Assembly (NCBI GenBank): GCA_965231135.1
Contig: OZ246419.1
Location: 8,411-72,410, forward strand
Length of the DNA stretch: 64,000 nucleotides
Source: an uncultured Gammaproteobacteria bacterium
GTDB lineage: Bacteria > Patescibacteriota > Microgenomatia > UBA8517
Direction of reading: 5' to 3'
Below the pieces are notes generated by a model. That model saw nothing but the letters and a program-made list of their open reading frames with translations. It ran no database searches and had not been told where the DNA came from. The stretch's first letter is position 1. Each line of letters opens with the position of its first letter. The translations under genes and the position numbers were made by a program. Shown in pieces: positions 8,597 to 60,933 of the stretch.

Positions 8597-8605
8597 AAGA
8601 GGATT

Positions 8606-9157: not shown

Positions 9158-9172
9158 TTAAATCATTTTAAA

Positions 9173-45721: not shown

Positions 45722-46713
45722 AATTCTTCTACTTTAATGTTACTACTTCTTACTTTTTCAAGCCAAGATGGAATTTCACTATCATGTAATAATCCTTTTT
45801 GAGAACCGATGAAACTTATCACAGAACTAGAATTACACATCCCCCAAACTAGGGCTTCTTCTAAAGATTTACCTTTAATTAGTGCCGATAAACAGCCACT
45901 TCCGAATGCATCTCCTGCACCAGTTCTTTCAATCACTGGAATATTAAGAGTTCCTAACTTCCAATATTTGCCATCGGCTTTTGCAAAACAGCCATTTCCG
46001 CCATCTGTGATAATTGGAATTTGGACTCCAAGATTTGATAAACCATCTAATAAACTTTTGTGATTATTTTCAGATTTTTCAATCCCTGTTAATTTTTCGG
46101 CTTCTTCTTTGTTTACAAATAAACATACGGTACGAGATAAAATGTTTTTTAAACTTTCTATTCCGGCTTTTAGTTGCCAGCTGCCTGGATTAAAACCTAA
46201 CTTTATGTTTGGATTTTGCGCTAAAAGCTCATAAACCGATTCATAAAATTCTGCAAAATTTTCCCCCATTGAAGTTAAATAGATCCACTGAGGAATGGGA
46301 ACATCTACCGGAAATTGATAGATTTTTGGAGAATGATATGTAAAAATAGTACGCTCGCCAAGATATCTTATTACAATTGATGAGTTTGAAGTTGTGTTTT
46401 CATCTTTTTTAATAAAACCTGTATAAACTCTTTCTTTTTCAAGTGTCTCATATATTTGATTACCTGAATTATCCTGACCAATTGTTAGAAGAATTGCAGT
46501 CTCGACACCTAAACGACTTGCACCAACTGCGTTATTGGCAGCATTGCCGCCGACTGAATAATCAAGAGATTTAACTGGAATTTTATCTCCATAAGTAAAA
46601 CTAATCAGACATTTTTTATTGTCAATTTCGCAAGTTGTATCAACTTCACTTGGTTCTATAAAAGTATCAAGCGAGGCATCACCAATACTAAGAAGAGTGA
46701 AATTATTTGCCAT
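45718..46713 (-). CDS. PfkB-family carbohydrate kinase
   Basis: GG motif near the N-terminus, the C-terminal DTTGAGDAF anion hole, and 331 aa. Confidence 0.8.
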   Translation of the reverse strand: MANNFTLLSIGDASLDTFIEPSEVDTTCEIDNKKCLISFTYGDKIPVKSLDYSVGGNAANNAVGASRLGVETAILLTIGQDNSGNQIYETLEKERVYTGFIKKDENTTSNSSIVIRYLGERTIFTYHSPKIYQFPVDVPIPQWIYLTSMGENFAEFYESVYELLAQNPNIKLGFNPGSWQLKAGIESLKNILSRTVCLFVNKEEAEKLTGIEKSENNHKSLLDGLSNLGVQIPIITDGGNGCFAKADGKYWKLGTLNIPVIERTGAGDAFGSGCLSALIKGKSLEEALVWGMCNSSSVISFIGSQKGLLHDSEIPSWLEKVRSSNIKVEEL

Positions 46714-47686
46714 TTCGAGCGTTAGAATTTACCTTAGCAACTTCTAAAAATTTATCTTGAGCATCTTTAACCATTGTAGGATTTCCTTTCCAAATTTCTA
46801 AAGCTGAATTTTGAAGAGCTCTTCCAAAAGAGAAAGATAATTCCCAAGGAACGTCATCTCTTTTATTCATTTCTCTTAAATTATTTGCAGCTTCTTCTTC
46901 AGACTGACCACCAGATAAAAAGACAATACCTGGAATTTCTTGAGGTACACAATCTTTAAGAACTTCAATGGTTTTTTGGGCAACAGTTTCTGAAGTTGCA
47001 GTGCCCGATCCACTTCCAGGAAGAACCATATTTGGCTTGAGGAGCATTGCTCTAAAATTTACATTTTTGTCTTTTAGTTTCATAAAAACAATTCGCAAAA
47101 CACTACGAGTCACTTCATAGCATTTATCAATAGTGTGACTTCCGTCCATTAAAACTTCTGGCTCAACTATTGGGACAAAACCTGAGCTTTGTGCGATGGA
47201 TGCATACTCAGCCAGACGATTGGCATTTTCTTCAACACATTGAATTGAAGGATTGACTTCGGAAATAGAAAAAGCTGCACGCCATTTGGTAAATTGTAGT
47301 TTTAATTCTTTGTAATCTACCAATCTTTCTTTTAGACCTGTTAAACCGTCTGTTAATTTATCTCCCGGATAGCCTGCCATGTCTTCCATACCCTGATCAA
47401 CTTTTATTCCTGGGATAATTCCTTTTTTAATTAAAACATCTGTAAAGTTTTCTCCGGTTGATGTTTTATCTCTTGAAGTTTCATCAAACATTATCACACC
47501 GCTTATAAAATTTTCAATGCCTTGAGTTGTAAAAAGCATTTCGCGATAAGCGCGCCTTGCTTCTTGGGTTGAGCTTATTCCGACTGCAGTAAATCTTTTT
47601 TCAATTGTCGGGAAAGATTCATCAGCTGCCAAAATACCTTTTCCTTTTGTGACCAAGGCTTTGGCTAAATTTTCTAATTCGTCCAT
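46703..47686 (-). CDS. fructose-bisphosphate aldolase, class I
   Basis: ILAADES, the Schiff-base Lys region and a C-terminal Tyr are visible; similar to DhnA/archaeal-bacterial class I FBA. Confidence 0.8.
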   Translation of the reverse strand: MDELENLAKALVTKGKGILAADESFPTIEKRFTAVGISSTQEARRAYREMLFTTQGIENFISGVIMFDETSRDKTSTGENFTDVLIKKGIIPGIKVDQGMEDMAGYPGDKLTDGLTGLKERLVDYKELKLQFTKWRAAFSISEVNPSIQCVEENANRLAEYASIAQSSGFVPIVEPEVLMDGSHTIDKCYEVTRSVLRIVFMKLKDKNVNFRAMLLKPNMVLPGSGSGTATSETVAQKTIEVLKDCVPQEIPGIVFLSGGQSEEEAANNLREMNKRDDVPWELSFSFGRALQNSALEIWKGNPTMVKDAQDKFLEVAKVNSNARNGK

Positions 47687-47703
47687 AAATTAACTATAAC
47701 ACG

Positions 47704-48696
47704 TCAGGAGTTTTTGCGCGCGATAACTTTTTTAACTTTTTCAATTATATTTTCTTTAGTTAAATTATATTTTTCTAATAATTCATCTGGACTTCCACTT
47801 TCTCCAAATTTGTCTTCAACTGCAACCATTTCAATTGGAGTTGGGAAATTTTTTGATAAACACTCAGCAACTGCAGAGCCGAGTCCTCCATTAATTTGAT
47901 GGTCCTCTACTGTAATAATTGCCCCACAAGTTTTGGCGGCTCTAATTATTGCTAATTCATCAAGAGGTTTTATCGTGTGACAATTTATAACTAAAACATC
48001 CATTCTATTTTGCAACCCTTTAGCGGCAAGTAAACTTTCATAAACTAATGGACCTGTTGCAATTATTGCAACTAATGGATTTTTGCTTTCCCAAAAAGTT
48101 TCAGCTTTACCAATATTAAATGGGGTTCTATCAGTTGTAAAAACAGGAGTACTGGCGCGAGTTAATCTAAGATAGCTTGGTTTATTATTTTTGGCAATTT
48201 CAAGCGTTGCTTTTTTGGCTTCTTCGGCGTCACAAGGAGAAATTACAATCATATTGGGAAGACTTCTCATTAAAGCAAAATCCTCAAGCATTTGGTGAGT
48301 TGCACCGTCTGGGCCAACAGTTAATCCTGTATGACTGCCGATAATTTTTACTGGAACATTGTTAATACAAATAGTGGTACGAATTTGTTCCCAGGTGCGA
48401 CCTGGAGAAAATACAGAATAACTTGCTGCAAAAGGAATTTTACCGTAATTTGCAAGACCTGATGAAACTGTTATCATTGCCTGTTCGGCAACACCGGTTT
48501 CAAAAAAACGTTGCGGGAATTTTTCTTTAAATAAATTTACATGAACGGACTCTTCAAGATCTGCAGATAAGGCAACAACATTTATATTTTTTTCTCCTGC
48601 AATTAATAATCCTTCGCCAAAACCAATACGAGTGGAAGCTTGTTCAATATTTTTTTTGAAAATATTTTCTGAAAGATTTTGTTTGGGATTAATCAT
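47704..48696 (-). CDS. transketolase, C-terminal subunit
   Basis: Pyrimidine-binding and C-terminal domains of a split transketolase. Confidence 0.9.
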   Translation of the reverse strand: MINPKQNLSENIFKKNIEQASTRIGFGEGLLIAGEKNINVVALSADLEESVHVNLFKEKFPQRFFETGVAEQAMITVSSGLANYGKIPFAASYSVFSPGRTWEQIRTTICINNVPVKIIGSHTGLTVGPDGATHQMLEDFALMRSLPNMIVISPCDAEEAKKATLEIAKNNKPSYLRLTRASTPVFTTDRTPFNIGKAETFWESKNPLVAIIATGPLVYESLLAAKGLQNRMDVLVINCHTIKPLDELAIIRAAKTCGAIITVEDHQINGGLGSAVAECLSKNFPTPIEMVAVEDKFGESGSPDELLEKYNLTKENIIEKVKKVIARKNS

Positions 48697-49531
48697 TTTC
48701 TTTTATCCTTTCTTTAATTTCATCACGCGTTTTTTCTAATTCCTTTAATGCCAATTTTGCCTCTTCTTTATTTGGAGCTTTGCCATGCCATACATATTTA
48801 TTTTCCATAAAGCTAACTCCTTTACCTGGAATAGTATTTGCAATAATTACTGTTGGTCTATCATAAATATCTTTTGCCTTTTTAATAGCAGTCGCAATTT
48901 CTTTGAAATTAGACCCATCAATTTCTTCAACATTCCAATGAAAAGATTTATATTTATCAACTAAAAAATTAATGGGCATTATCTCTTCTGTGTTACCACT
49001 TAATTGAATTTTATTTCTATCAATAATTGCAGTTAAATTTCCTAATTTGTATTTGACTGCAAATAAAACTGCCTCCCAAGTATTTCCTTCATCCTGCTCC
49101 CCGTCAGACATGACACAATAAACTCTAAATCTTTTATTATCTAATTTCGCACCAAGAGCAATCCCAGCAGCTTGGCCCAAACCAGAACCTAATGGGCCAG
49201 AAGTTGTTTCTAAACCTGGCAATTTACCGCGTTCCGGATGACCTTGCAATCTAGAATTTAATTTGCGAAGTGTTTTTAATTCTTTAACGTCAAAATAACC
49301 ACTTTCTGCCATGGCTGCATAACGCACAGGTACGATATGGCCATTGCTTAAAATTAATCTGTCGCGTTCTTCCCAATCAGGATTACTTGGATCGTGATTT
49401 AAAATACTAAAATAAAGACTTGCAAAAATATCTGCCATTCCAAGAGCGCCGCCGGGATGACCAGAACCGGCGCGCTCAAGCATAGTGATAATATCAATTC
49501 TTATTTGGTTGGCAGCTAATTCTAAATCCAT
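48689..49531 (-). CDS. transketolase, N-terminal (TPP-binding) subunit
   Basis: GHPGG, the TPP-binding GDG...N region and an overlap with the C-terminal subunit gene mark it as the N-terminal subunit. Confidence 0.9.
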   Translation of the reverse strand: MDLELAANQIRIDIITMLERAGSGHPGGALGMADIFASLYFSILNHDPSNPDWEERDRLILSNGHIVPVRYAAMAESGYFDVKELKTLRKLNSRLQGHPERGKLPGLETTSGPLGSGLGQAAGIALGAKLDNKRFRVYCVMSDGEQDEGNTWEAVLFAVKYKLGNLTAIIDRNKIQLSGNTEEIMPINFLVDKYKSFHWNVEEIDGSNFKEIATAIKKAKDIYDRPTVIIANTIPGKGVSFMENKYVWHGKAPNKEEAKLALKELEKTRDEIKERIKEND

Positions 49532-49544
49532 GGCAGTAGATCTT

Positions 49545-50147
49545 TTATAGCTCGAAAGCTTTTTCGTTGCTATTTGCGTTTTCTTTATCTTTAATTAACC
49601 TTTCAAAAGTTAGAATTTCTTCATATGCCTTTTCCGGAGTTTCTACAATTTTATAAACTTTTAAATCTTCAGGACGAATTCTCATATTATTAATAAATGA
49701 ATCAATGATTGCTTTCCAGAATTTTCCATACAAAATTAAAGGTTTGTGATGACCATAATAAAGTTTTGCTAATCCCCAAGCCATTCCAAATTCTGAAATT
49801 GTTCCTGTTCCCCCTGCGAAAATAACATACAAATCTCCTAATTCAAGAAGTTTAAGTGTTCGCTCAAGATAATTTTTAGTGACAACTTCCTGATCAATTG
49901 GATTATTCGGGTCGCGTCCTTCAAAATTTGTAATATCTTTTGGATAAAAAGTAACTCCAATTGTTGTCCCGCCGCCAGCTTTAGCGCCTTCAGAAACAGC
50001 ACGCATAGTTCCCGGACCGCCGCCGTTTATTGTGACAAATCCTTTTTGCGCTAAAAATTTTGCACATTCGTAAGCTTCTTTGTACAACGGGTCGGACGGC
50101 GCTGTGTCTGCAAAACCAAAATAAGAGATGTGTTTAATTTTGACCAT
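49545..50147 (-). CDS. LOG family protein (TIGR00730; cytokinin riboside 5'-monophosphate phosphoribohydrolase-like)
   Basis: Carries GGGPGTMRAV and GGTGTISEF. Confidence 0.8.
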   Translation of the reverse strand: MVKIKHISYFGFADTAPSDPLYKEAYECAKFLAQKGFVTINGGGPGTMRAVSEGAKAGGGTTIGVTFYPKDITNFEGRDPNNPIDQEVVTKNYLERTLKLLELGDLYVIFAGGTGTISEFGMAWGLAKLYYGHHKPLILYGKFWKAIIDSFINNMRIRPEDLKVYKIVETPEKAYEEILTFERLIKDKENANSNEKAFEL

Positions 50148-50772
50148 TGAATAATTTTAGATTATCTACAAGACTTGGTTCAAATATTCTTTTTCCGACT
50201 GCAACTTCATCAACTCCCAAACTTTCCATTTCGTGAACTAATTCAACTGTTACTCCGCCATCAACCAATAATTTAAAATTTAAATTTAGTTTGTGTCGTA
50301 ATTCATTAGCTGCTTTTATTTTGTCAAAAACTGAAAGATCAAATTCCTGACCGCCAAAACCAGCTTTAACACTCATTAAAAGCAAGACATCTAATTTGGG
50401 TAAAACATTTTGACTCACTTTTTCAATTGGTGTATCCAAATCAATTGCGAGACCAGCTTCTGTGGTCGTTGCCTTTACTTTATCGACAAATTCCATTTGA
50501 TTTTGCATAAATTCAATTTGGCCAATCATTCTATTGGCGCTATTTGGCACACAATGCTCTACCCATTCAACTGGATCTTTGACCATTAAATGAAAATCCA
50601 AATTTAAAACAGTTGTTATATTTTTTAAAACTGCTGGATCAACTGTGGAATTGTTGGCAAATTTATTATCAATAACATCAATTTGAATTCGATCAACAAT
50701 GCCTTCAGCTTTATTTTCAAGGGACGTTAATTCGCTAATGTCATCAGTTAAAATGGCAGGAATGATCTTCAT
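50134..50772 (-). CDS. rpe: ribulose-phosphate 3-epimerase
   Basis: Shows IQIDVIDNKF, LDFHLMVKDP, LLLMSVKAGFGGQEF and LLVDGGV. Confidence 0.75.
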   Translation of the reverse strand: MKIIPAILTDDISELTSLENKAEGIVDRIQIDVIDNKFANNSTVDPAVLKNITTVLNLDFHLMVKDPVEWVEHCVPNSANRMIGQIEFMQNQMEFVDKVKATTTEAGLAIDLDTPIEKVSQNVLPKLDVLLLMSVKAGFGGQEFDLSVFDKIKAANELRHKLNLNFKLLVDGGVTVELVHEMESLGVDEVAVGKRIFEPSLVDNLKLFNGQN

Positions 50773-50795
50773 AAATTCATTTTAGCACGAAGAGA

Positions 50796-51902
50796 TTATT
50801 TTTGAGGAGTGAAACTTAGAGTTATTGGATCAGTTGGAGCCGTGTTACTATTTAAACTTCTGCTAACACGGACTACTTGCTCAACGAGGCGATTTGTATA
50901 ACCCCATTCGTTATCATACCAGGCAAAAACTTTAACTAAATTGCCGCCAATAACCTGCGTTAATCCTAAATCAACAATTGCTGATTCGCTTCTGCCAATA
51001 ATATCTGATGAAACTAAAGGCTCGTTACTTACTGCAAGAATGCCCTTGTATAACGCATTTTCCGAAGCGTCGATAAATGCCTGATTAACTTCTTCTATAG
51101 AAGTAACTTTTTTGGTAATAATTGCAAAATCTGTAATGGATCCTGTGACAACTGGGACTCTTAAAGCACGGCCGTCAAATAAACCTTTTAGATCGGGAAT
51201 GGTTTCAGTTGTTGAAATTGCTGCTCCTGTAGTTGTGGGCACAATATTAACTGCAGCAGCGCGCGCGCGGCGCAAATCTGAATGAGATCCATCTTCCAAA
51301 ACTTGGTCATCTGTATATGCGTGGGCTGTTGTCATTGCAGCTTTTTCAATTCCAAATTTTGCATGCATTACTGCTGCAACTGGAGCAATACAATTTGTAG
51401 TACAGCTGGCATTTGAAACAACTTGTGATTTACCGTCATATTCATTAACCCCAATTACATAAGTGTTAACATTACTCCCCTTCGGAGGGGCTGAAATAAT
51501 TACGCGCTTTGCGCCACCTTTGGCGTGCTTTGCGGCGCCTTCTGCATCTGTAAAATGGCCAGTAGATTCAATTACAACGTCAACTCCGTATTTGCTCCAA
51601 GGAAGTTTTTCGGGATCTTTTTGAGCAAGAACTGGAATTTTTACACCATCAACAATTAGATTTCCAATTTGGGGATTTTCATCTGTTGCTTCTTTTGGAT
51701 CTTTTAATTCCTCAGATTTAATTTCTTTTGCAAATTTCCTATATGTTGTGTCGTAATTTACAAGATGTGCCCAACTTGCTGTCGGCATGCTGCCTGAAGT
51801 ATTAATTGCTGCAAATTCGATTTCGCCAGTGTGCTTTAATAAACCAATTCTAAAAGCTAAACGCCCAATTCTACCAAAACCATTTATGCCAACTTTGACC
51901 AT
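50796..51902 (-). CDS. gapA: glyceraldehyde-3-phosphate dehydrogenase (type I)
   Basis: Has the N-terminal NGFGRIGR motif and the catalytic ASCTTNCIAP. Confidence 0.95.
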   Translation of the reverse strand: MVKVGINGFGRIGRLAFRIGLLKHTGEIEFAAINTSGSMPTASWAHLVNYDTTYRKFAKEIKSEELKDPKEATDENPQIGNLIVDGVKIPVLAQKDPEKLPWSKYGVDVVIESTGHFTDAEGAAKHAKGGAKRVIISAPPKGSNVNTYVIGVNEYDGKSQVVSNASCTTNCIAPVAAVMHAKFGIEKAAMTTAHAYTDDQVLEDGSHSDLRRARAAAVNIVPTTTGAAISTTETIPDLKGLFDGRALRVPVVTGSITDFAIITKKVTSIEEVNQAFIDASENALYKGILAVSNEPLVSSDIIGRSESAIVDLGLTQVIGGNLVKVFAWYDNEWGYTNRLVEQVVRVSRSLNSNTAPTDPITLSFTPQK

Positions 51903-51940
51903 TTGTATTCACTATACTATAATTTTTTTAATAAAAAAAT

Positions 51941-52459
51941 ATGTCAGAACAAAGAGCTAATGAAATGCTAAGACAAGAAGACGAGAGATTTATAACGGAA
52001 CTTATAAAAAATGGTGCAATTACTGAGGCTGGTGGAGATTGTTTAAAGTTTATCATTAGTTTTAGGAGAAGTTTAACACAAGCGAATTCCAATTCACTAT
52101 TTGCAGATGGTAAAGAATATAAAGAGTTAGTTCAAAAATCTGGTTTTAGAGATGAAGATATTAACAGTATAAAGTCTAGCGCAGACGCTTTCTTTGCAGA
52201 AGCTAGAAGTTCACAACTTTCTATATTAGAAATGGATTTTAAATTTATGATTGGAATGTCGGCCATATTCATGTCTCGTATGCAAAGAGAAGAATTGGAG
52301 AGGTTAGATATAAATGAGGTTTCTCTAGAGAGACTAAAAGATTTAAATGCTAAAAATTTTACCGAGCTTATGAAAATAATAGACCTAGCACAGGCAAGAG
52401 TTCCTATTTTTCCAGAACAAGTTATAGAGAGAATGAAACTTTCAGATAGCAACTCCTGA
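51941..52459 (+). CDS. hypothetical protein
   Basis: The only plus-strand gene inside a long minus-strand glycolytic block. Confidence 0.4.
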   Translation: MSEQRANEMLRQEDERFITELIKNGAITEAGGDCLKFIISFRRSLTQANSNSLFADGKEYKELVQKSGFRDEDINSIKSSADAFFAEARSSQLSILEMDFKFMIGMSAIFMSRMQREELERLDINEVSLERLKDLNAKNFTELMKIIDLAQARVPIFPEQVIERMKLSDSNS

Positions 52460-53002
52460 AATCTCAATATGAGAAATTTCAAATTTAAAATTTTCGCCTT
52501 TGATATTTTTTGGCAGCTTAACTGATTCTTCAATTAAAATTTTATTTACAACTCCACTATCTTCTGCGATTTTACTGGCGACATTTACCGGTCCGCCGGC
52601 AATTTCCCATCCTTCTTTTTGAAGATCAAATAATAAAACATTGCCACGACATAAACCAATACTAATATTAAAATTGTCACTTAAATTATCCTGCAAATCT
52701 TTGGCAAAATTAATTGCTACTTCATTTTTATCTGTAACAAAAATCCCTAAACTTCCGTTTGATTTAATTTTTTGGACTTCATGAAATTCTAATAATTTTT
52801 CAATTAATGAATTTGCAAGCAACCAATCGCTTAATTCATCTAATAAAAATTTTCTTTTTGGGTGAAGGATTTTGACTAAAATAACTGTTTTTGTAAAAGA
52901 ATATTTTTTATAGACTGCATCATAAACTTTTTTATCTGATAAATTTTTAGTCAAATCGTCGTAAAAGTCTTTGTTAAATGGTATTGGATATATGTTTGTC
53001 AT
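52442..53002 (-). CDS. class III nucleotidyl cyclase homology domain protein, C2-like subunit (lacks metal-binding Asp; retains Lys/Asn/Lys)
   Basis: Shows KIKSNGSLGIFV (aligned to KxxGDxxM) and ISIGLCRGNVLL...GGPVNVASKIAEDSGVVNKILIEESV, aligned to RIGIHxG...GDTVNxASRLE...IxVSe.t. The first-strand Asp is replaced by Lys (LVKIL). Confidence 0.6.
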   Translation of the reverse strand: MTNIYPIPFNKDFYDDLTKNLSDKKVYDAVYKKYSFTKTVILVKILHPKRKFLLDELSDWLLANSLIEKLLEFHEVQKIKSNGSLGIFVTDKNEVAINFAKDLQDNLSDNFNISIGLCRGNVLLFDLQKEGWEIAGGPVNVASKIAEDSGVVNKILIEESVKLPKNIKGENFKFEISHIEISGVAI

Positions 53003-53546
53003 TTAGTAATTTAGAAAAGGATTTAGTTAATTTTATTTCTCCTCCTTCAGTATGATTTTCCGCCAAATCTTCAACAAAATCTGCTTCATCACCAAATAAA
53101 CCTCCACCGATTTTAATAAATTTTCCGTAGTGAATCGCCATGCCGATGTGAAGTGAGAAATTTTCTAATTCTTTTTGGACTTGTTGCATTTTCTCATAAA
53201 TTAATTTAGGCGAAACAGATTTTGGATAAAACATTTCTGTATTGTCTGCTGCCCATATTCCAATTCCAACTCCTCCAATTTCGCTGCCGTATTTATAAAC
53301 TAAATCTTTAGGATGACTTACTATTTTCATAACTTCCAATAAATCTAATTCTTCACTTAATTTACTAAGGCCCGCGGAGTCTGATGCAACGACGGTTCCT
53401 TCAACTAAATAATTTTTTAAAATATCTTCGTGAAGTTTTTTTGTTTTATTACTTGTAATCCATTTCTGAATAATTTCTAAGGGAACAGCGCCTGCGATAT
53501 CTTCAGTAACGTCAGCTAATGATGGATTTATAAAACGCTTTGGCAT
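52974..53546 (-). CDS. class III nucleotidyl cyclase homology domain protein, C1-like subunit (retains first metal Asp; lacks Asn/Arg)
   Basis: VVASDSAGLSKL aligns to FxDIxGFT. LHIGMAIHYGKFIKIGGG aligns to RIGIHTG. GDEADFVEDLAE sits in place of GDTVNxASRxE. Confidence 0.55.
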   Translation of the reverse strand: MPKRFINPSLADVTEDIAGAVPLEIIQKWITSNKTKKLHEDILKNYLVEGTVVASDSAGLSKLSEELDLLEVMKIVSHPKDLVYKYGSEIGGVGIGIWAADNTEMFYPKSVSPKLIYEKMQQVQKELENFSLHIGMAIHYGKFIKIGGGLFGDEADFVEDLAENHTEGGEIKLTKSFSKLLNDKHISNTI

Positions 53547-53549
53547 AAG

Positions 53550-54503
53550 TTATTTTTCAAGAAGGGAAACAATTCCAGGGAGAGTGCCTTTGGCAAGAAA
53601 CTCTAGCATTGCTCCTCCGCCGACACTTATCCAATTAAATTTATCTTTTAGATTAAGTAAATTAATTGCAGTTTCTGTATCCCCCCCTCCTGCAATTTTA
53701 AATGAATTACTATTTGTAACATTAAAGAAAACTCGGGAAGTCCCCTGCCTGTGGCCTTCTTCTTCAAATTTTCCAATTGGGCCACTTACAACTATTGTTT
53801 TAGATTTTATTATTTCAGTTTCAAACTTTTCAATTGAATGAATAGTGATATCTTCTTTGTCTGGTAATAAGTCGGCAACAACAACTTTCTCATTATGTCG
53901 AAGAGGACTGTCATCGTGAATATAATCCGGCATTCTTCCTCCAATTAAAATTTTATCTGATAATTTTAAAAAACTTTCCATATATGAAAGCTTGTCGTCT
54001 TTTAATCCGCTAATGATAAAAATTAATGGTCTTTGCGGGTTTTCTAAAACTTTGGAAAGATTTTCTATTTCAGAAACAAACCTAAAGCCTGCTGCATGAG
54101 GAAGTAATTTCGGTAAACCGACAATTGATGCGTGTTCGCGGTGGCTTACGCCAAAAGCTTCATTAACATAAAAATCCTGACCTGCTGACAATTCTTTGGC
54201 AAAGCTTTCGTCATTTTTTTCTTCTCTTTCGTCAAAACGAAGATTTTCCAAAACTCTTGCTTCCCATTTTTTAAAATATTGTTCAAAAGGCTTTAGACTT
54301 AAGCTTTCATCAAGCCCTTGTGGGCGGCCGCGATGTCCAATAATTGTAATTAATGCATTTTGATTTTTTAGATAATCGAGAGTTTGAGAAAGCGAAGTTA
54401 AACGAATATTATTTATATCTTCCGGGGAAATATCCAAATCAGCGCGAACAATTACGCGTTTGCCTGTTAAATTAAAATCAGAAAGCTTGGGAAGAGAGAT
54501 CAT
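53550..54503 (-). CDS. pgk: phosphoglycerate kinase (compact, 317 aa)
   Basis: Has LTGKRVIVRADLDISPE, FYVNEAFGVSHREHAS and the C-terminal GGGAMLEFLAKGTLPG. Confidence 0.8.
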   Translation of the reverse strand: MISLPKLSDFNLTGKRVIVRADLDISPEDINNIRLTSLSQTLDYLKNQNALITIIGHRGRPQGLDESLSLKPFEQYFKKWEARVLENLRFDEREEKNDESFAKELSAGQDFYVNEAFGVSHREHASIVGLPKLLPHAAGFRFVSEIENLSKVLENPQRPLIFIISGLKDDKLSYMESFLKLSDKILIGGRMPDYIHDDSPLRHNEKVVVADLLPDKEDITIHSIEKFETEIIKSKTIVVSGPIGKFEEEGHRQGTSRVFFNVTNSNSFKIAGGGDTETAINLLNLKDKFNWISVGGGAMLEFLAKGTLPGIVSLLEK

Positions 54504-54973
54504 GATTTATTATCTTCTATATTCTTGATTTCTTCCAGCCTTCTTTCGTGACGAGGTAAATTATCAAATTTTGTTTCTAAAAAAACTTTAAGCATGTTTT
54601 GTGCCTCTTCGTCTGTCGTAAAGTCGCTTGCAAGAACTAAAATATTTATATTGTCGTCATTTTTCGCTGCCTTTACCTGATCTTGTGTTTTACCAATTCC
54701 AGCTCTAATTCCATGAAATTTGTTTGCAGTGATGTCTACCCCTACTCCACTGCCACAAAGAAGAATACCTAGACAATTTTTTTCTTCGCTTACTTTTTTG
54801 GCAACTGATGAAGCATAAGTTGTGTAATCATCATCCGGATTTAATTTATCCGGACCTAAATCTTCAAATTCGTAATTCCAACTTTCAAGCCATGTTGCTA
54901 TTTTATTTTTTAAAGCGAAACCTCTATGGTCTGATCCAAGATATATTTTCATTTTCCAATAATCATTAAACAT
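54500..54973 (-). CDS. rpiB: ribose-5-phosphate isomerase B
   Basis: N-terminal MKIYLGSDHRGFALK, the LCGSGVG region containing the catalytic Cys, and 157 aa. Confidence 0.85.
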   Translation of the reverse strand: MFNDYWKMKIYLGSDHRGFALKNKIATWLESWNYEFEDLGPDKLNPDDDYTTYASSVAKKVSEEKNCLGILLCGSGVGVDITANKFHGIRAGIGKTQDQVKAAKNDDNINILVLASDFTTDEEAQNMLKVFLETKFDNLPRHERRLEEIKNIEDNKS

Positions 54974-55079
54974 AAAATAGAACCAGGTATTAAAATTTCC
55001 AGGAAACCCAAAACTCGAACCGCAGTTCCACTACTAAACTCAATTCGACTCCAGTTGACACCTTTTATTGAATTTTCGT

Positions 55080-55739
55080 TCATTTGTAGCCTTCTACCAA
55101 TTGGAGTAATTCTTTTTTTGGGTCTTCGGCTTTTACAATGCTGCTTGCGATTGCAAAACCTGCAGCGCCTAATTGTAAACCAATTCTCATATCTTCTTCG
55201 CTTTTTACTCCTGCTCCAATTATTAGAGGAATGCCAGCATCTTTTGCCAGCGCGACGGCATCTTTTATAACTTCTGGCTTTGCCTGACTAACAGAAGTAT
55301 CAGTGCTTCCAACCAACTCAGGAGGCTCGTAAGAAATAAAATCTGGAGATATATCGAGGTTCCTTTTTAGTTCTTCCAGATCTGCCGCAAATACTAAAGT
55401 TTTTAAACCAACTTCTTTACAGACTTTAACAGTGTTTGTTAATACATTAAAATCTGAAATTTTATTTTCTGAATGATTTAAAAAAGTTCCATATGCACCC
55501 GCTTCGCGAACTTCTTTTGGCAGAATACTTCCTGTGTGAGCACCAAAATCAACTGGATCAACTTTTTGAGCCCAAATTTCTAAATTACTTTCAGAAACTA
55601 TTTCTTTCAAATCAAGAGCTTGAACAACTGGAATGATTTTTATCTGAGATTCTTTACTTACTTCTTCGATTATTTTTGTTAAAGAAAGAGCGTTGTCTCC
55701 TGAAGACTCTTCATATGTTTTGTAATTTACAAAAATCAT
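55080..55739 (-). CDS. tpiA: triosephosphate isomerase (short, archaeal-type)
   Basis: FVNYKTY..., the LNHSENK catalytic His region, and a Glu and GAGV phosphate loop; only 219 aa. Confidence 0.85.
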   Translation of the reverse strand: MIFVNYKTYEESSGDNALSLTKIIEEVSKESQIKIIPVVQALDLKEIVSESNLEIWAQKVDPVDFGAHTGSILPKEVREAGAYGTFLNHSENKISDFNVLTNTVKVCKEVGLKTLVFAADLEELKRNLDISPDFISYEPPELVGSTDTSVSQAKPEVIKDAVALAKDAGIPLIIGAGVKSEEDMRIGLQLGAAGFAIASSIVKAEDPKKELLQLVEGYK

Positions 55740-55745
55740 TTCTCT

Positions 55746-56468
55746 TTAGACTATTCTAGTTATTAGAAAAATAAATGCAACTCCAATAAGGGTCATAAGA
55801 ATGGTTAAATAAGAAGAATGCTCTCTATGAGCTTCTGGTAAGATATCAGAAGATCCAATATAAAGCAAAAACCCCGCAAAAAAACCTAAATATAAAACAA
55901 GAAAACTATCTGGAACTTTAAAAAATAATGTTGAAATTACACCAATAACTGGCGTAATCGCATCTAATAATAATAAATAAAGAGCCTGTTTGTCTTTATT
56001 TTTATTGACTAGAACTAAGGTTACAGTGTTTAGTCCATCTGAGAAATCATGAGCAATTACCGCAATTGCAACGAGTACTCCAATTGCAGGGCTTACTTGA
56101 AAACCCAAACCAATTCCAACTCCGTCCATAAAAGAATGACCTGATAAAGCAATGGCTGATGCAATACCCACTTGCGGATGGTGATGGGAACCGTATGCGT
56201 CTTCTTCTTCGTGATGAATAAGAATTGTTTTTTCGAATACATGGAAAAGCAGAAAACCAAAAACAAGAGCTATCATTGGATAAACTGATTCAACTTTGGT
56301 TTTTTCAACTAATTCAAAAATTTCTGGAAAAATATCAAAAGCAACAACTGCCACAAGCACTCCAGCCGTAAACCCCAAGATGAGATGTAGTTTATCTTTG
56401 TACTTTAGACCCACAAGCCCACCTATAAGGGTCGAGAAGAAAGTACAGATTGTAAAGAATATTGCCAT
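55746..56468 (-). CDS. ZIP family metal (zinc) transporter, ZupT-like
   Basis: About 8 TM helices with His-rich motifs (GSHHHPQ, HDFSDG, GHSFMDG). It is divergent from zur. Confidence 0.8.
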   Translation of the reverse strand: MAIFFTICTFFSTLIGGLVGLKYKDKLHLILGFTAGVLVAVVAFDIFPEIFELVEKTKVESVYPMIALVFGFLLFHVFEKTILIHHEEEDAYGSHHHPQVGIASAIALSGHSFMDGVGIGLGFQVSPAIGVLVAIAVIAHDFSDGLNTVTLVLVNKNKDKQALYLLLLDAITPVIGVISTLFFKVPDSFLVLYLGFFAGFLLYIGSSDILPEAHREHSSYLTILMTLIGVAFIFLITRIV

Positions 56469-56487
56469 TTTTTAATTTTAACACAAT

Positions 56488-56516
56488 TTGACTTATGCAA
56501 CTTGGTTGCATATAAT
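56488..56516 (+). promoter_or_regulatory. sigma70 promoter TTGACT-17-TATAAT for zur, with a perfect 8-3-8 palindromic operator TATGCAAC-TTG-GTTGCATA (56494-56512) covering the spacer and -10
   Basis: Read directly. The -10 ends 6 nt before the zur ATG at 56523, so the transcript is putatively leaderless. On the other strand the palindrome overlaps the likely -35 of the divergent ZIP gene. Confidence 0.5.
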
Positions 56517-56522
56517 ACATGA

Positions 56523-56870
56523 ATGATAAAAACGAAATTACAAAAATTACTTGCGAAATCTAAATCTCCTATTTCTGTTCCAGAGATCTTGGAAGAAATT
56601 GATGCAAATAAAACTACAATTTATCGAGAACTTACATCTTTTATAAAAGACGGGCTTATAACAGAAATTGAATTTGGAGATGGAAAAAAAAGATATGAAT
56701 GGAAAGATCACGGACATCATCATCATTTAATTTGTAAAACTTGCGGCAAGATTGAGGATGTCAAAGTTGACGAGAAGAAATTAATAAAAAGTATTACAAA
56801 TAAAAATTTTTTAATTGAGAGTCATAGTTTAGAGTTTTTTGGAAAATGCAAAAATTGTATAACGAAATAA
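56523..56870 (+). CDS. Fur-family transcriptional regulator (Zur-like)
   Basis: Has a wHTH N-terminus, an HHHH metal site and a C-terminal CxxC...CxxC (CKTCG...CKNC). Confidence 0.85.
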   Translation: MIKTKLQKLLAKSKSPISVPEILEEIDANKTTIYRELTSFIKDGLITEIEFGDGKKRYEWKDHGHHHHLICKTCGKIEDVKVDEKKLIKSITNKNFLIESHSLEFFGKCKNCITK

Positions 56871-57574
56871 CTAATTTAGATAACTACTTACCAAGCGAAA
56901 AAGTTAATAGACTTTTTAGTACCCTTGTTGAAAATACATTAAAAGAGGAAAAAAATAATTTAAACAAAAAGCAAATTGAAAATTTACAAAAAGTTTGCAG
57001 TAGCGCAGAATACGAACTAGAAAAATATTGGTCTCAAAAAAATATTTACAAATTCCCCTATTTTGAAAATTACTTAAAACTTACCAAACTGGAGTGGTTT
57101 AGTTTAAAAAGTTGTAGTGTTCACAAGAAACATAAAATACTTTTTGTTGGTGGAGGGCCATTACCAATGACCGCAATAATGCTTGCAAAGATCTACAGGC
57201 AAAAAGTTACAATATTGGAAAAAGAAAAAGAGGCAGTTGATCTTTCAAGCAGTTTAATAAAAGAACTTAAATTACAAAATAAAATTAAAGTTATCCAGGT
57301 GGATGCATTAGATTTTGAGGGTTATAAAAATTTTAATGCTATTTTTGTGGCAGCACTGGCTGGTATTAATTCAAATATAAAAGATAAAATTTTGGAAAAA
57401 ATTAAAAAACAAACTTTGAAAAATACTCACATACTTGCAAGATCTTCGTGGGGGGCAAGACGGATTTTGTATAAACCTTTATCTAAACATTCTTTCAAGA
57501 TATTTAAGCCAGTAATGGAGGTAAAACCTATGAACGACATTGTTAATTCTTTTGTTATTTTTCAAAACATATGA
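56846..57574 (+). CDS. nicotianamine synthase-like protein (CntL/NAS-type SAM aminobutyryl transferase)
   Basis: Carries YLPSEKVNRLFSTLVENTL and KILFVGGGPLPMTAIMLA, which match the hallmark NAS motifs (PS..VNRLF..LV; aFvGSGPLPlTsivLA). It overlaps zur by 25 nt. Confidence 0.65.
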   Translation: MQKLYNEITNLDNYLPSEKVNRLFSTLVENTLKEEKNNLNKKQIENLQKVCSSAEYELEKYWSQKNIYKFPYFENYLKLTKLEWFSLKSCSVHKKHKILFVGGGPLPMTAIMLAKIYRQKVTILEKEKEAVDLSSSLIKELKLQNKIKVIQVDALDFEGYKNFNAIFVAALAGINSNIKDKILEKIKKQTLKNTHILARSSWGARRILYKPLSKHSFKIFKPVMEVKPMNDIVNSFVIFQNI

Positions 57575-58485
57575 CACACAAAATACCAACATATTTAATA
57601 CACGGATCTTTAGGAAGCGGTAAAACTACCTTCATAAAAGGAATGTTAAAAACAGATGATTTTAAAAATTCAGTTGTTATTGAGAATGAGTTTGCGAATA
57701 TAAATATAGACGAAGCAAGTTTAAAAGATACATGTGATATTGATATTTACGGAATTGCTGGAGGATGTATTTGTTGTTCATCAGGACGTGAACTTTTCGA
57801 TGCTTTTGATAAGATAGCAAAATTAGAAAATGTTAAATCTTTGATAATTGAAACAACTGGTGTAGCAAGCTCTGTAAAACTTATTCAACAGTTTATGCTT
57901 AATAGCGAATTTGATGATAATTTTTATTTAAGTAGAAATATTCTTGTTATCGACTCTCTTGAAAATTCAATAGATTATTTAAAGAAAAATAAAAAATTAG
58001 ATATAGAACTCGCTGATATAGTCATATTATCAAAAATTGATTTAGTTGATGCTCAAGTTGTAAGAAAAATGAAGAAATTTATAATATCAATTAATTCAAA
58101 AGTAGAAATAAATCCTCAAAAAATTGCGGAGAGAGATGAATCAAAATCAAGCGATAAACTTCTTAAACATCTTGCAGAGCTAACAAAAATATTAAATGAA
58201 GATCATACAAAAAATATTGATTATATTGTTGTAAATCCAAATAAAAATATTGAAATTGCAAGTATAAATTTATTTATTAAGCAAATATATGATAAGAAAA
58301 TAAATTTAAAAAGAGTTAAAGGAACTTTTGAGACGAAAAATAAATTAAATTATGAAATTCAAGCAACACCAAAAAAGATAAATTATGTGAAATTAAAAGC
58401 AAAACCAGAAAAAGATTATCTAGTTTTCATTGGCGAAAAATTAGATAAAAATGTTTTTAATGATTTTATAAAAAAATATGAATAA
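57571..58485 (+). CDS. COG0523/CobW-family GTPase (zinc metallochaperone, ZigA/YeiR-like)
   Basis: Has the G1 motif GSLGSGKTT, the CxCC motif GGCICCSS and the switch LIIETTG, and overlaps the NAS-like gene. Confidence 0.85.
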   Translation: MTHKIPTYLIHGSLGSGKTTFIKGMLKTDDFKNSVVIENEFANINIDEASLKDTCDIDIYGIAGGCICCSSGRELFDAFDKIAKLENVKSLIIETTGVASSVKLIQQFMLNSEFDDNFYLSRNILVIDSLENSIDYLKKNKKLDIELADIVILSKIDLVDAQVVRKMKKFIISINSKVEINPQKIAERDESKSSDKLLKHLAELTKILNEDHTKNIDYIVVNPNKNIEIASINLFIKQIYDKKINLKRVKGTFETKNKLNYEIQATPKKINYVKLKAKPEKDYLVFIGEKLDKNVFNDFIKKYE

Positions 58486-59008
58486 CTTAGATTTTGCTAA
58501 AAAGACAGTTAAAAGATTAATTTTACAGTACAAAGAATATGAAATATTAAATGAAGAAATTAAAAAATTTGAAAACGAAAAATTTAAATTAATTTTGAAA
58601 AAGGATAATAAAAAAATAAAAGAGCTTGATAAAAAAATAAATTTACTGAAACTTGATTTACAACAAATTTCAGATGAAATGACATTTAGCAATCCAATTA
58701 TTTGGATGATGTATAAAAATGAAGCTTATAAAAATACCTCTAAAGAAATAGAAACAATGCGAGATTTCAGAAAACATTGTGAGCCAGATGGTTATATCTG
58801 TACAAACAGATTCAGATTTTTAAATAACTATTTAAATAATGTGCTGGAGGATAAAAATATATTTCCAGATGATATGTTGCTAATTAATTTATATAAACAG
58901 AAGATTATCGTGGATCTTTTGGATAATCCAGAATTTATGAAAAAATGGAAGGACAGTGAATATCTAAAAACCAATAATCAAATTAATAAATGGCATACAG
59001 CTATTTAA
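58478..59008 (+). CDS. hypothetical protein (last gene of the zur operon)
   Basis: Charged, probably coiled-coil ORF that overlaps the COG0523 gene. Confidence 0.4.
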   Translation: MNNLDFAKKTVKRLILQYKEYEILNEEIKKFENEKFKLILKKDNKKIKELDKKINLLKLDLQQISDEMTFSNPIIWMMYKNEAYKNTSKEIETMRDFRKHCEPDGYICTNRFRFLNNYLNNVLEDKNIFPDDMLLINLYKQKIIVDLLDNPEFMKKWKDSEYLKTNNQINKWHTAI

Positions 59009-59011
59009 GAA

Positions 59012-59152
59012 TTAATTTTGATTTTTGTTTTGATGACACTCTTTACAATGTTTCCCTTTTTTATGGTCGCAATTTTCCTCATTACAAAAACATTGTCCAT
59101 CACAGTCGCACATATTTTCGTTAGTTAAAGATTTACCGCAATTAGTACACAT
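59012..59152 (-). CDS. Cys/His-rich 46-aa small protein (metallothionein-like or zinc-ribbon), not in ORF track
   Basis: Sequence MCTNCGKSLTNENMCDCDGQCFCNEENCDHKKGKHCKECHQNKNQN (9 Cys, 3 His). A consensus SD (AAGGAGGTGA) lies 5 nt upstream of the ATG. It is convergent with the zur operon. Confidence 0.5.
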   Translation of the reverse strand: MCTNCGKSLTNENMCDCDGQCFCNEENCDHKKGKHCKECHQNKNQN

Positions 59153-59188
59153 AATTATCACCTCCTTTAAGAAATTAATAATATCACA

Positions 59189-60277
59189 TTATTTTCTTTT
59201 AACCCACCAGCTTGCAAGGAAAGTACAAATAGGAATTGCTAAAATTAAACCACATGTTCCTGCGATAGTGCGGACGACTTCATCAATTATGATTTCATTG
59301 TTTAAAACTACCCAAAGAGGCTGACCGCCAGGATTTAATTCAAAATAAATAAAAATTGCTAAGGCACTTCCTGCATAAGCCAAAACTAAAGTATTAACCA
59401 AGGAAACGATATGTTCACGGCCTACTCTACTTCCCTTTTTGACTAGATCGTCAAATGATAAATTTTTATTTGTTTCGTGTAATTCAAAAATAGTTGCTGA
59501 TTGGGTTGTTGTTATGTCATTTAATGCTCCAAGAGTACCGATAATAATTCCTGAGAGAAGTAGACCTTGTAAGTTAATATTTTGAGTAGCTCCTGCTGTC
59601 AGGAGAGAGACTGCCTCATCATCTCCAATTCCTGCAAGATTTGTGAAATTTACAAAAGCAATTGAAAGAATGCTTGCAATAATTAGGGCAATGAAAGTTG
59701 AAGTTAATGCAATGGTTGTCTTTTTACTTATACCATGGGCAAGATATGTTGAAACAACTAATATAACAAGAGAGCCAATAATTGTTACGAAAAGCGGATT
59801 TGCGCCATGAAGAATTTGCGGAATTATAAATAACAAAATAACTGCAAGGCTTATTATTAAACCTGCAATTGAACCAATTCCAGAAAGACCTGCGACTAAT
59901 AGAAGCAAAATTACAAAACCAATTATTAAAAACGGAATACTATTTAAGCGATATTTATCAAGAATATTAATACCGTTATCAGTTTTATCTAGAATTAAAA
60001 TATCCCCTACTTTTGCTAATTGACTATCTGTAAGAAAGGAATCGCCACCGTTTTCTAACTCAATAGTTTTGCCAACATCACTTCCGTCAATTATTTTTAA
60101 AGTAAGATCCTGAAATCTTAATTTGGCACCAAAAGAATTGTTTACTCCTTCTTTATCAACAGATATAACCTGAGCTTTTTCAAATTCTTCTTTTGACTGG
60201 GCGAATATATTCTGCCTACCGGCGGTTTGAAAAATAACAAGAAATAAAACAAGAAACAAAATTATCTTTTTTATCAT
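59189..60277 (-). CDS. YibE/F family membrane protein
   Basis: N-terminal signal/TM, an extracytoplasmic domain and about 8 C-terminal TM helices. Confidence 0.6.
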   Translation of the reverse strand: MIKKIILFLVLFLVIFQTAGRQNIFAQSKEEFEKAQVISVDKEGVNNSFGAKLRFQDLTLKIIDGSDVGKTIELENGGDSFLTDSQLAKVGDILILDKTDNGINILDKYRLNSIPFLIIGFVILLLLVAGLSGIGSIAGLIISLAVILLFIIPQILHGANPLFVTIIGSLVILVVSTYLAHGISKKTTIALTSTFIALIIASILSIAFVNFTNLAGIGDDEAVSLLTAGATQNINLQGLLLSGIIIGTLGALNDITTTQSATIFELHETNKNLSFDDLVKKGSRVGREHIVSLVNTLVLAYAGSALAIFIYFELNPGGQPLWVVLNNEIIIDEVVRTIAGTCGLILAIPICTFLASWWVKRK

Positions 60278-60933
60278 TTAGAAAACATGAATGTAAGAAA
60301 ATGTAACCACACTGGTTCATTTGTATTTAGAACCGCTCCAGTTGAAGCAGAAACACTCGCTGCAATATCTTCTTTTAAACTAACAACATTAAATAAATTT
60401 AAATTTTTAACTCCATCAATATTATATTGAAGCTCACCGTTACTTGATTCTTCCAGCGCAATTTGATTATTTTTAATTGAGTCTACAGTACCTGCACGCA
60501 TTAAAGTAAGACTTGCTTCATAAGGCAAAATACTGACAAGACGATTTCCGGAATTTGTTTGTACAGATAATTCGTTTTGGGAGGGATCGATTGTAATTGG
60601 AAAAGAAGTTAAAGCTGTAATATTATTTTCTGTGATTGAAAACTTTCCATTTGAATTTCCAATTTGGATTTCATTAGAATTTGGACGTGACTCTATATCA
60701 ACTAAAGTTTCGTGCATATTTGTTACATCTACGCCATTTAGCTCAATTTTGCCGTTATTGTTTGCAAGAGAAATTTCATTACTGTTTACATTTTCAGCAA
60801 TATTTTTGACTTGAATTTGAGATTTGGCGGGAATTTGGAGAGATGTTGAATCTCCTAAAACCTGGTAAACAGTTTTTCCTTGAGGAGTAATTACAACAAA
60901 CGCTGCAGCGAGAGATAATAGTGTTTTCTTCAC
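60274..60933 (-). CDS. hypothetical secreted protein with internal repeats
   Basis: Signal peptide plus repeated NG(K)xELNGVD/IQIGNSNGKFSI units; it overlaps the YibE/F start. Confidence 0.45.
   Translation of the reverse strand: MKKTLLSLAAAFVVITPQGKTVYQVLGDSTSLQIPAKSQIQVKNIAENVNSNEISLANNNGKIELNGVDVTNMHETLVDIESRPNSNEIQIGNSNGKFSITENNITALTSFPITIDPSQNELSVQTNSGNRLVSILPYEASLTLMRAGTVDSIKNNQIALEESSNGELQYNIDGVKNLNLFNVVSLKEDIAASVSASTGAVLNTNEPVWLHFLTFMFSK

Follow-up and report, generated by a model that had tools for sequence, protein, structure and literature searches.

Organization of the locus

The window analysed here, a 64,000-nucleotide (nt) stretch of contig OZ246419.1 (assembly GCA_965231135.1; GTDB lineage Patescibacteriota, Microgenomatia), carries a compact operon for a Fur-family regulator, a nicotianamine synthase (NAS), a COG0523 GTPase and an uncharacterised protein, called G5 in the following, divergent from the gene of a ZIP-family metal importer. 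On the forward strand, the operon encodes the Fur-family metalloregulator with 115 amino acids (aa; 56523..56870; PF01475 FUR, E-value 9.3e-20), Zur-like by its context only, the NAS family enzyme with 242 aa (56846..57574; PF03059 NAS, 3.8e-44), the COG0523 (G3E P-loop) GTPase metallochaperone with 304 aa (57571..58485; PF02492 cobW, 1.1e-34) and G5 with 176 aa (58478..59008), which represents a soluble all-alpha family. The importer of 240 aa (55746..56468; Pfam Zip, 1.2e-22) is encoded on the reverse strand. Successive genes of the operon overlap by 25, 4 and 8 nt. An earlier, sequence-only reading of this DNA had given the same open reading frame (ORF) coordinates and overlaps, which were reproduced; its proposal of a single transcription unit of four genes, divergent from the importer, is in agreement with the overlapping frames and with the one promoter described below. 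All five genes were present, sequence-identical, on two independent metagenome contigs. The G+C content is low (0.27-0.39), consistent with a Patescibacteria genome. One genome per species was scanned for NAS relatives; the closest genome was a Candidatus Microgenomatus metagenome-assembled genome (MAG) with 62 % identity. This yielded 80 related loci, whose ORFs were searched with the window proteins and whose genes were ordered; single loci are denoted by numbers with the prefix L.

Promoter and operator

The regulator and importer genes are separated by 54 nt (56469..56522). Within positions 55600..60400, a consensus scan ranked a forward-strand element in this region (56488..56516) as the top sigma-70-like match with 11 of 12 positions: TTGACT as -35 (56488..56493), a 17-nt spacer and TATAAT as -10 (56511..56516). 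The regulator ATG follows 6 nt after the end of the -10 element. A candidate extended -10 element of the importer gene on the reverse strand (TGnTAAAAT, 56475..56483), read by eye and outside the consensus scan, would end 6 nt ahead of the ZIP ATG. With both -10 elements ending 6 nt before an ATG, both transcripts are probably leaderless.

The spacer of the operon promoter is occupied by a perfect palindrome, TATGCAAC-TTG-GTTGCATA (56494..56512; core TGCAA-N5-TTGCA), which overlaps the -10 element and is present as the sequence-only reading had described it. A single operator at this position could serve both divergent transcripts. We take its architecture to be 7-1-7-like, typical of Fur-family boxes, and to our knowledge its sequence is unlike the classical Fur, PerR and Zur boxes. 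By itself, the palindrome is within chance in the window, with 27 of 100 shuffles giving at least one match at up to three mismatches. The scan for further copies that had been proposed gave no second perfect copy in the 64 kb and nine one-mismatch matches against 6.1 expected, which is chance level, but it was productive in the related loci. There, the core was found 28 times in 1.04 Mb of fetched sequence, compared to about one expected copy. Nearly all of these sites precede a gene for NAS, for a Fur-family protein or for a long COG0523 protein by no more than about 100 nt, also in loci where the regulator gene is not a neighbour. The layout of -35, operator and -10 is the same in L003, L007 and L026. 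It is the conservation across related loci, and not the window alone, which makes the operator convincing.

The nicotianamine synthase

A NAS-like identity had been suggested for the 242-aa protein, to be checked by a profile search against PF03059. The protein scored 151.5 bits at a cutoff of 27.1, and the match spanned positions 14-270 of the 276 in the profile. On this result we rejected a generic class I methyltransferase, since any methyltransferase family reached at most 32 bits. NCBI lists an identical protein as 'nicotianamine synthase family protein [Patescibacteria group bacterium]'. The catalytic residues Glu59 and Tyr76, equivalent to E81/Y107 of the archaeal MtNAS and E77/Y106 of the plant AtNAS1, and the S-adenosylmethionine (SAM) loop GGGPLP (102-107) are invariant in 28 homologues. 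The fold was checked on a natural NAS-G5 fusion (P0136), which Foldseek aligned to MtNAS with a template modelling (TM) score of 0.86-0.87 and a root-mean-square deviation of 2.3-2.5 Å.

Reference NAS and CntL sequences were taken from the alignment of Seebach et al. (PMC10248798). In BLAST comparisons, the window NAS was closest to AtNAS1 (120 bits, 33 % identity), followed by the fungal NcNAS (85 bits), MtNAS (82 bits) and three CntL proteins (Sa, Fm and Pa; 44-47 bits), a ranking shared by nearly all 28 family members. A family profile built from these 28 members matched MtNAS at 2e-34 and CntL at 2e-11 only. In a joint alignment, Cys51 and Glu55 correspond to Cys69 and Glu73 of AtNAS1, and the residues AGIN (172-175) are located at the VGMD insertion of AtNAS1; both features are kept across the family, whereas MtNAS and the three CntL proteins have neither the Cys/Glu pair nor the four-residue insertion. 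Each of the changes E73Q, E77Q, Y106F and deletion of VGMD abolishes the formation of nicotianamine (NA) by AtNAS1 (PMC10248798). Residues and scores together support the assignment of the window enzyme to the NAS family as a eukaryote-like, NA-type member, and the predicted product would be nicotianamine, a compound of three aminocarboxypropyl units with an azetidine ring.

A CntL of the staphylopine type was rejected: the CntL equivalog model NF033601 gave 40 bits at a cutoff of 350, the residues are the wrong ones and CntM is missing. The opine dehydrogenase CntM (PF10100), CntK and Cnt-type transporters were found neither in the operon nor among the scanned ORFs of the window nor among the neighbours at the loci of Patescibacteria, the candidate phyla radiation (CPR). 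The expectation of a nicotianamine-type rather than a staphylopine-type enzyme, based before on the missing neighbours, has thus gained the CntL model score and the closer relation to AtNAS1 than to MtNAS or CntL. A Paenibacillus locus (L079), considered as a seed for CntM, was discarded; its neighbours are ABC transporter and GntR genes, and CntM is absent.

The Cys/Glu/Glu/Tyr signature with the insertion is present also in NAS of Actinomycetospora, Alphaproteobacteria, Pyxidicoccus, Chloroflexi and Acidimicrobiales (L028, L029, L032, L033, L036, L056, L062 and L070; NAS at about 7001..7780 in each); none of G5, COG0523 and YibE/F is present in these loci. A rough neighbour-joining tree placed the plant and fungal NAS inside the bacterial radiation, with the MtNAS type and CntL outside. 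This placement agrees with a study of 2025 that inferred bacterial donors for plant NAS and called the knowledge on the bacterial distribution 'scant' (PMC12454661). In the literature searched, no paper was found that links NAS to Patescibacteria operons or to COG0523.

The COG0523 GTPase

The GTPase has a Walker A motif (GSLGSGKT, 12-19), the CxCC motif as CICC (66-69), ETTG (94-97) as Walker B and an NKxD-like SKID (154-157). The C-terminal domain CobW_C (PF07683) scored 21.7 bits, just below the cutoff of 22. The nearest solved relative in a search of the PDB was E. coli YjiA (3.5e-15).

In three loci, a P-loop NTPase of the CbiA/ParA/MinD class with a CooC-like layout (GKGGSGKTT) adjoins the Fur-family gene at the position that COG0523 has in other loci (L015, 1648..2529; L017, an ORF of 278 aa with NAS on one side and the Fur-family gene on the other; L023, 1075..1923). 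This NTPase may act as an alternative metallochaperone, and its position ties the NAS-G5 pair once more to NTPases of the metallochaperone type.

Conserved gene neighbourhood

A recurrent module was recognized in Patescibacteria: a leftward unit of the Fur-family gene and YibE/F, a membrane protein gene, stands opposite to a rightward unit of NAS and G5, optionally with a long COG0523 gene ahead of NAS, a COG0523 gene between NAS and G5 and YibE/F at the end. Within a few kb of NAS, a Fur-family gene was present in 27 of the 80 loci. Together with the conserved operator, this shows that the linkage to the regulator gene, called zur in the sequence-only reading, which had staked its proposal on it, is kept in related genomes. 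G5 was near NAS in 24 of the 80 loci, a COG0523 gene of either length in about 18, YibE/F in 14 and ZIP in five to six. The NAS loci of Actinomycetospora, proteobacteria and methanogens contained none of G5, COG0523 and YibE/F. Where the partners of the module were missing, unrelated housekeeping genes flanked NAS.

Several loci presented variants. Three operator copies (1963, 2765, 6926) frame an extended regulon in L023 (1..8416) with genes for a ParA-like NTPase, the Fur-family regulator, YibE/F, ZIP, an ArsP_1-type permease with a CxC motif, a COG0523 protein of 452 aa with a clear CobW_C domain and a Pyr_redox_3 flavoprotein, followed by NAS and G5. In a Doudnabacteria MAG (L009), an HI0933-like FAD oxidoreductase gene (7717..8874) shares its first 4 nt with the end of the NAS gene and is thus translationally coupled to it; G5 and COG0523 are absent from this locus, and the oxidoreductase may be an alternative downstream step. 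The same NAS-COG0523-G5 cassette was found in a MAG labelled Candidatus Woesearchaeota (L020, 6968..9185), an archaeon of the DPANN group, which would point either to a transfer across domains, from one ultra-small symbiont to another, or to mis-binning of the contig.

The G5 family

G5 has no family match in Pfam or NCBIfam. A word-index search gave 32 homologues, all unnamed, and an exhaustive profile search found only 184 clusters among 1.84 billion representatives. The AlphaFold model (AF2; predicted local distance difference test, pLDDT, 95.7) consists of a long N-terminal helical hairpin and a small helical globule, and the conserved core comprises about residues 62-176. The fold had no match in the PDB by Foldseek (best E-value 1.8), and a sequence profile found nothing significant. 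The last gene of the operon had been proposed as a partner or an exporter. An exporter was rejected because hydrophobic segments are absent from G5 and its helical model is that of a soluble protein; the role as a partner gained support by gene adjacency and by fusions.

In 24 genome loci, G5 stands directly beside NAS or behind the pair NAS-COG0523; in Patescibacteria, it is the gene that accompanies NAS most faithfully. In a reverse look-up, all three G5 homologues encoded on long contigs were located in the order FUR-NAS-cobW-G5. Fusions occur to both preceding proteins with G5 as the C-terminal part: at least five clusters are NAS-G5 fusions and at least nine, probably about 25, are COG0523-G5 fusions, with a genome-derived example of the latter in L049. 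The fusions keep the order of the operon, with the Fur-family gene divergent from cobW and NAS-G5 in L087 and divergent from NAS and cobW-G5 in L088. The model of a natural NAS-G5 fusion is confident overall (pLDDT 95.6, predicted TM score 0.85). On the basis of the 24 loci, the reverse look-ups and the fusions, a chance neighbourhood of G5 was rejected. A G5 domain in all of the long COG0523 proteins (about 566 aa) encoded upstream of NAS was also considered and discarded; only the L049 protein and the fusion clusters of the representative search carry it.

Over 169 domain sequences, the residues W76, Y79, K80, Y84, H100, C108, R111, W157, E161, K171 and W172 are 97-100 % conserved, among them H100, C108 and E161 with 99-100 %. 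A metal site beside a pocket for a polycarboxylate would be compatible with this set of a His/Cys/Glu trio, three cationic residues and five aromatic ones.

In two clusters (proteins P0093 and P0095), G5 is the N-terminal part of a fusion to a methyltransferase, and in L083 a HemK/METTL5/RsmC-like methyltransferase of the MTS type (8606..9367) follows G5 in the operon. It could be a tailoring N-methyltransferase or act on a protein. An azetidine-carboxylate synthase similar to AzeJ was rejected for the enzymes beside or fused with G5, as their best relatives in the PDB are of the CbiT, HemK, METTL5 and RsmC type.

YibE/F, the Cys-rich mini-ORF and adjacent genes

The YibE/F-family membrane protein of the window has 362 aa (59189..60277, reverse strand; PF07907, 1.7e-66) and is encoded convergent with the operon, with no operator upstream of its gene. 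In 14 related loci, YibE/F is located beside the Fur-family gene or G5, and in at least nine Patescibacteria loci (L015-L019, L030, L034, L040 and L085) directly downstream of the regulator gene and co-directional with it. No function of YibE/F was described in the literature searched. The associations suggest YibE/F as the best candidate for the associated transporter of metal or chelator.

The convergent Cys-rich mini-ORF of the sequence-only reading exists (59012..59152, reverse strand), with two corrections: the start is most likely the ATG at 59152, preceded by a strong Shine-Dalgarno sequence (AGGAGGTG), and the gene belongs to the YibE/F unit and not to the zinc operon, as it follows the YibE/F gene on the same strand at a distance of 27 nt. 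Shine-Dalgarno sequences are absent from all four operon genes. The encoded peptide (MCTNCGKSLTNENMCDCDGQCFCNEENCDHKKGKHCKECHQNKNQN; 46 aa with 10 Cys and 3 His) was called as a 46-aa gene on two independent metagenome contigs. Homologues were not found, and a comparable small Cys-rich ORF was not present in the related loci; this orphan of uncertain status may be a metallothionein-like or a zinc-ribbon peptide.

On the other side, a glycolysis and pentose-phosphate gene cluster (46703..55739, reverse strand) directly adjoins the zinc module. It comprises class I aldolase, a transketolase split into two genes, GAPDH, PGK, RpiB and TIM; the ZIP gene begins 7 nt from the TIM end.

Proposed function of the module

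The explanation which covers the observations best, and which we regard as fairly probable, is an autoregulated, metal-repressed NAS-COG0523-G5 module for cytosolic metal handling in Patescibacteria. The Fur-family repressor, most likely zinc-sensing, would bind the operator in the leaderless promoter of its own operon, and this operator would also overlap the promoter of the divergent ZIP gene. Once the metal becomes scarce, derepression would lead to the synthesis of the importer, the regulator, NAS, COG0523 and G5, and zinc would enter via ZIP. NAS would polymerise aminocarboxypropyl units from SAM to a polyamino-polycarboxylate chelator of the nicotianamine type, not to a His-based opine, and a CntM step would not take part. 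G5 would be the dedicated cytosolic partner of NAS and COG0523: its cluster of His100, Cys108 and Glu161 with Lys80, Arg111, Lys171 and the aromatic residues may bind the metal, the chelator or both, and G5, as a client or an adaptor of the GTPase, may connect it with the small-molecule pool of zinc. The sequences themselves show the gene content, the structure of the operon, the membership of the enzyme in the NAS family, the conserved operator and NAS-(COG0523)-G5 cassette and the natural fusions; zinc as the metal, nicotianamine as the product, action inside the cell and the biochemistry of G5 are what we infer.

Several points weigh against this explanation. The site for metal or ligand in G5 is proposed from residue conservation, and no relative with a known function was detected for G5. 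Among the closest NAS relatives, several (L003, L005 and L007-L011) have neither G5 nor COG0523 within 7 kb; in consequence, either NAS can do without G5 or these genomes encode it at another place. The plant-type residues are only correlative for the product of NAS, and nicotianamine binds, besides zinc, also Fe, Ni, Cu and Co. The regulator is not separable into Zur, Fur or PerR by its sequence. Genes for CntM-like proteins or transporters may be located elsewhere, the window of 64 kb being part of a contig of at least 810 kb, and with YibE/F as a conserved membrane protein, the chelator might be exported and imported.

Site of action of the chelator

Taken one step further, NAS, COG0523 and G5 would form an intracellular zinc-trafficking machine not recognised before, in which the chelator is a cytosolic buffer or carrier of zinc, G5, a new domain binding the chelator, zinc or both, hands the metal to or from the CxCC motif of the GTPase, and YibE/F is the associated membrane transporter. 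We propose this extension tentatively, as one possibility. A secreted zincophore overlaps with the module for cytosolic metal handling and differs only in the place where the chelator acts: the product of NAS would be exported, the zinc complex re-imported via YibE/F, perhaps also via ZIP, and the zinc stripped off by COG0523 and G5 in the cytoplasm. All characterised bacterial NAS-like systems, i.e., those of staphylopine, pseudopaline and yersinopine, are secreted metallophores (PMC7438024). The frequent position of YibE/F beside the regulator or G5, with co-transcription with the regulator in at least nine loci, and the missing functional description of this family are in line with secretion as well. 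However, the conserved neighbourhood contained no exporter of the MFS or EamA type and no importer of the Opp or FecCD type, the YibE/F gene of the window forms a separate convergent unit without an operator, and the conserved partners of NAS are cytosolic. The product of eukaryotic NAS acts inside cells, which counts against secretion, the window enzyme being closest to eukaryotic NAS. Secretion is possible, if doubtful.

Role of G5

G5 itself may be a tailoring enzyme, a functional analogue of CntM or NAAT, which would turn the NAS product into another final metallophore by means of a Cys-His-Glu triad or a catalytic zinc site of His, Cys and Glu and would be metallated by COG0523. NAS-G5 fusions are typical of consecutive steps of a pathway, and the near-invariance of H100, C108 and E161 is compatible with catalysis. 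The HemK/METTL5-like N-methyltransferase beside or fused with G5 in some operons suggests further tailoring. The COG0523-G5 fusions presumably resemble the chaperone-client fusion IcmF, in which a G3E GTPase, a MeaB-like chaperone, is fused to its client isobutyryl-CoA mutase, and we take IcmF as their precedent; it differs from them in GTPase subfamily, cofactor (B12) and client, with G5 being only a candidate client. On the other hand, the core of G5 is small (about 115 aa), all-alpha and without a cofactor-binding fold, and the N-terminal hairpin is coiled-coil-like, features which together appear more like those of a binding or adaptor module. G5 has no similarity to any enzyme, and many NAS genes lack a nearby G5. 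We therefore regard an enzymatic function as unlikely. A nucleic-acid-binding regulator was suggested by a helix-turn-helix-like segment, SDEMTF..WMMYKxxAYK, with a weak profile match to helices 2-3 of the engrailed homeodomain (E-value 0.008 for the whole sequence). However, each stretch alone has an E-value above 10, so that significance is not reached by any single domain. A transcription factor would not be expected to be fused covalently to NAS, COG0523 or a methyltransferase, and the operon already encodes a regulator; this function is highly improbable.

The metal

Zinc is the metal that we expect to be handled by the module, because a ZIP importer with a His-rich loop and a COG0523 protein with a CxCC motif are under the control of a Fur-family operator. 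This combination is the classical make-up of Zur regulons. The locus has the Fur-family repressor and a palindromic operator overlapping the promoter of an uptake gene; the typical cargo, a zinc importer and a COG0523 GTPase, flanks the operator and recurs in related loci. The His-rich loop of ZIP contains HH (85-86) and HHH (95-97), and the protein has many hydrophobic windows; a ZupT-like model of NCBIfam matched at 3.7e-16, below its cutoff. ZIP genes recur beside the operator in L007, L011, L018, L019, L023 and L034. In the regulator, CxxC...CxxC (71-74, 109-112) forms a structural site and residues 63-68 read HGHHHH; from its context the protein is called Zur-like and is most likely zinc-sensing. 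The 'complete zinc-starvation module' of the sequence-only reading would likewise follow from this context.

The regulator may instead be of the Fur, Nur or Mur type, with the chelator and the GTPase serving iron, nickel or cobalt. The scores of the regulator were slightly higher for the Fur and PerR models of NCBIfam than for Zur, all of them far below the cutoffs, and in the PDB it matched a mixture of Fur, Zur (FurB, ScZur) and PerR proteins, with little difference in E-value. Nicotianamine is also a good chelator of Fe(II), Ni and Cu, Fe and Mn are possible cargoes of ZIP proteins, and COG0523 includes the types of CobW (cobalt) and Nha3 (iron). The typical Zur signature formed by the His-rich ZIP, the CxCC protein and the Fur-family regulator argues against another metal, as does the absence of iron-uptake, nickel-enzyme and cobalamin genes from the window and the related loci, and a metal other than zinc appears quite unlikely.

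Comparison with known systems

With plant and fungal NAS (AtNAS1, NcNAS; PF03059), the window enzyme shares the family, the catalytic Glu and Tyr, the Cys/Glu positions and the four-residue insertion. It has the short 'core-NAS' length without the C-terminal autoinhibitory tail, which we list among the likenesses. In contrast to them, it is bacterial, controlled by a Fur-family operator and translationally coupled to COG0523 and G5, links which eukaryotic NAS is not known to have, and its insertion is AGIN instead of VGMD. The archaeal MtNAS, a thermonicotianamine synthase (PDB 3FPE), is likewise a stand-alone NAS without CntM and has the same fold and catalytic residues, but lacks the Cys/Glu pair and the insertion; methanobacterial loci are without Fur, COG0523, G5 and YibE/F neighbours. 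The Cnt opine operons for staphylopine, pseudopaline and yersinopine, Zur-regulated and composed of CntL, CntM with or without CntK, an exporter and an importer, are comparable in being built on an aminobutyryl transferase of the NAS superfamily for zinc limitation under Zur-type control. Unlike them, the operon studied here had no CntM, CntK, MFS, EamA, Opp or FecCD protein, but instead COG0523, G5 and, in related loci, often YibE/F. The GTPase resembles the Zur-regulated COG0523 proteins ZigA, YeiR, YjiA and ZagA and the eukaryotic ZNG1 in its G3E motifs and in sharing a Fur-family operator with a zinc importer. It differs by its short length, the borderline CobW_C domain and its coupling to NAS and to G5, to which it is elsewhere fused. 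A paper describing a partnership of COG0523 with G5 or NAS was not found in the literature searched.

Significance

Zur-type control, NAS, COG0523 and ZIP are known building blocks. No description was found in the literature searched for the cassette of NAS, COG0523 and G5, for G5 as a family and its fusions, for the operator or for the association with YibE/F. A plant-type NAS is widespread in the ultra-small Patescibacteria under a conserved metal-responsive operator, and this operator is usable for the mapping of regulons in CPR genomes. Few clients or partners are known for the zinc metallochaperones of COG0523, and the exchange of zinc with tight small-molecule chelators is still a matter of question. 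NAS, COG0523 and G5 offer a compact and genetically defined three-part cassette; the natural fusions show which proteins work together, so that the question becomes directly testable with recombinant proteins. G5 and YibE/F (PF07907), two families without a described function, gain a concrete context. If the intracellular zinc-trafficking machine proves true, G5 would be the first defined partner of a bacterial COG0523 protein that works through a metallophore, and the orphan YibE/F family would gain a function as membrane transporter.

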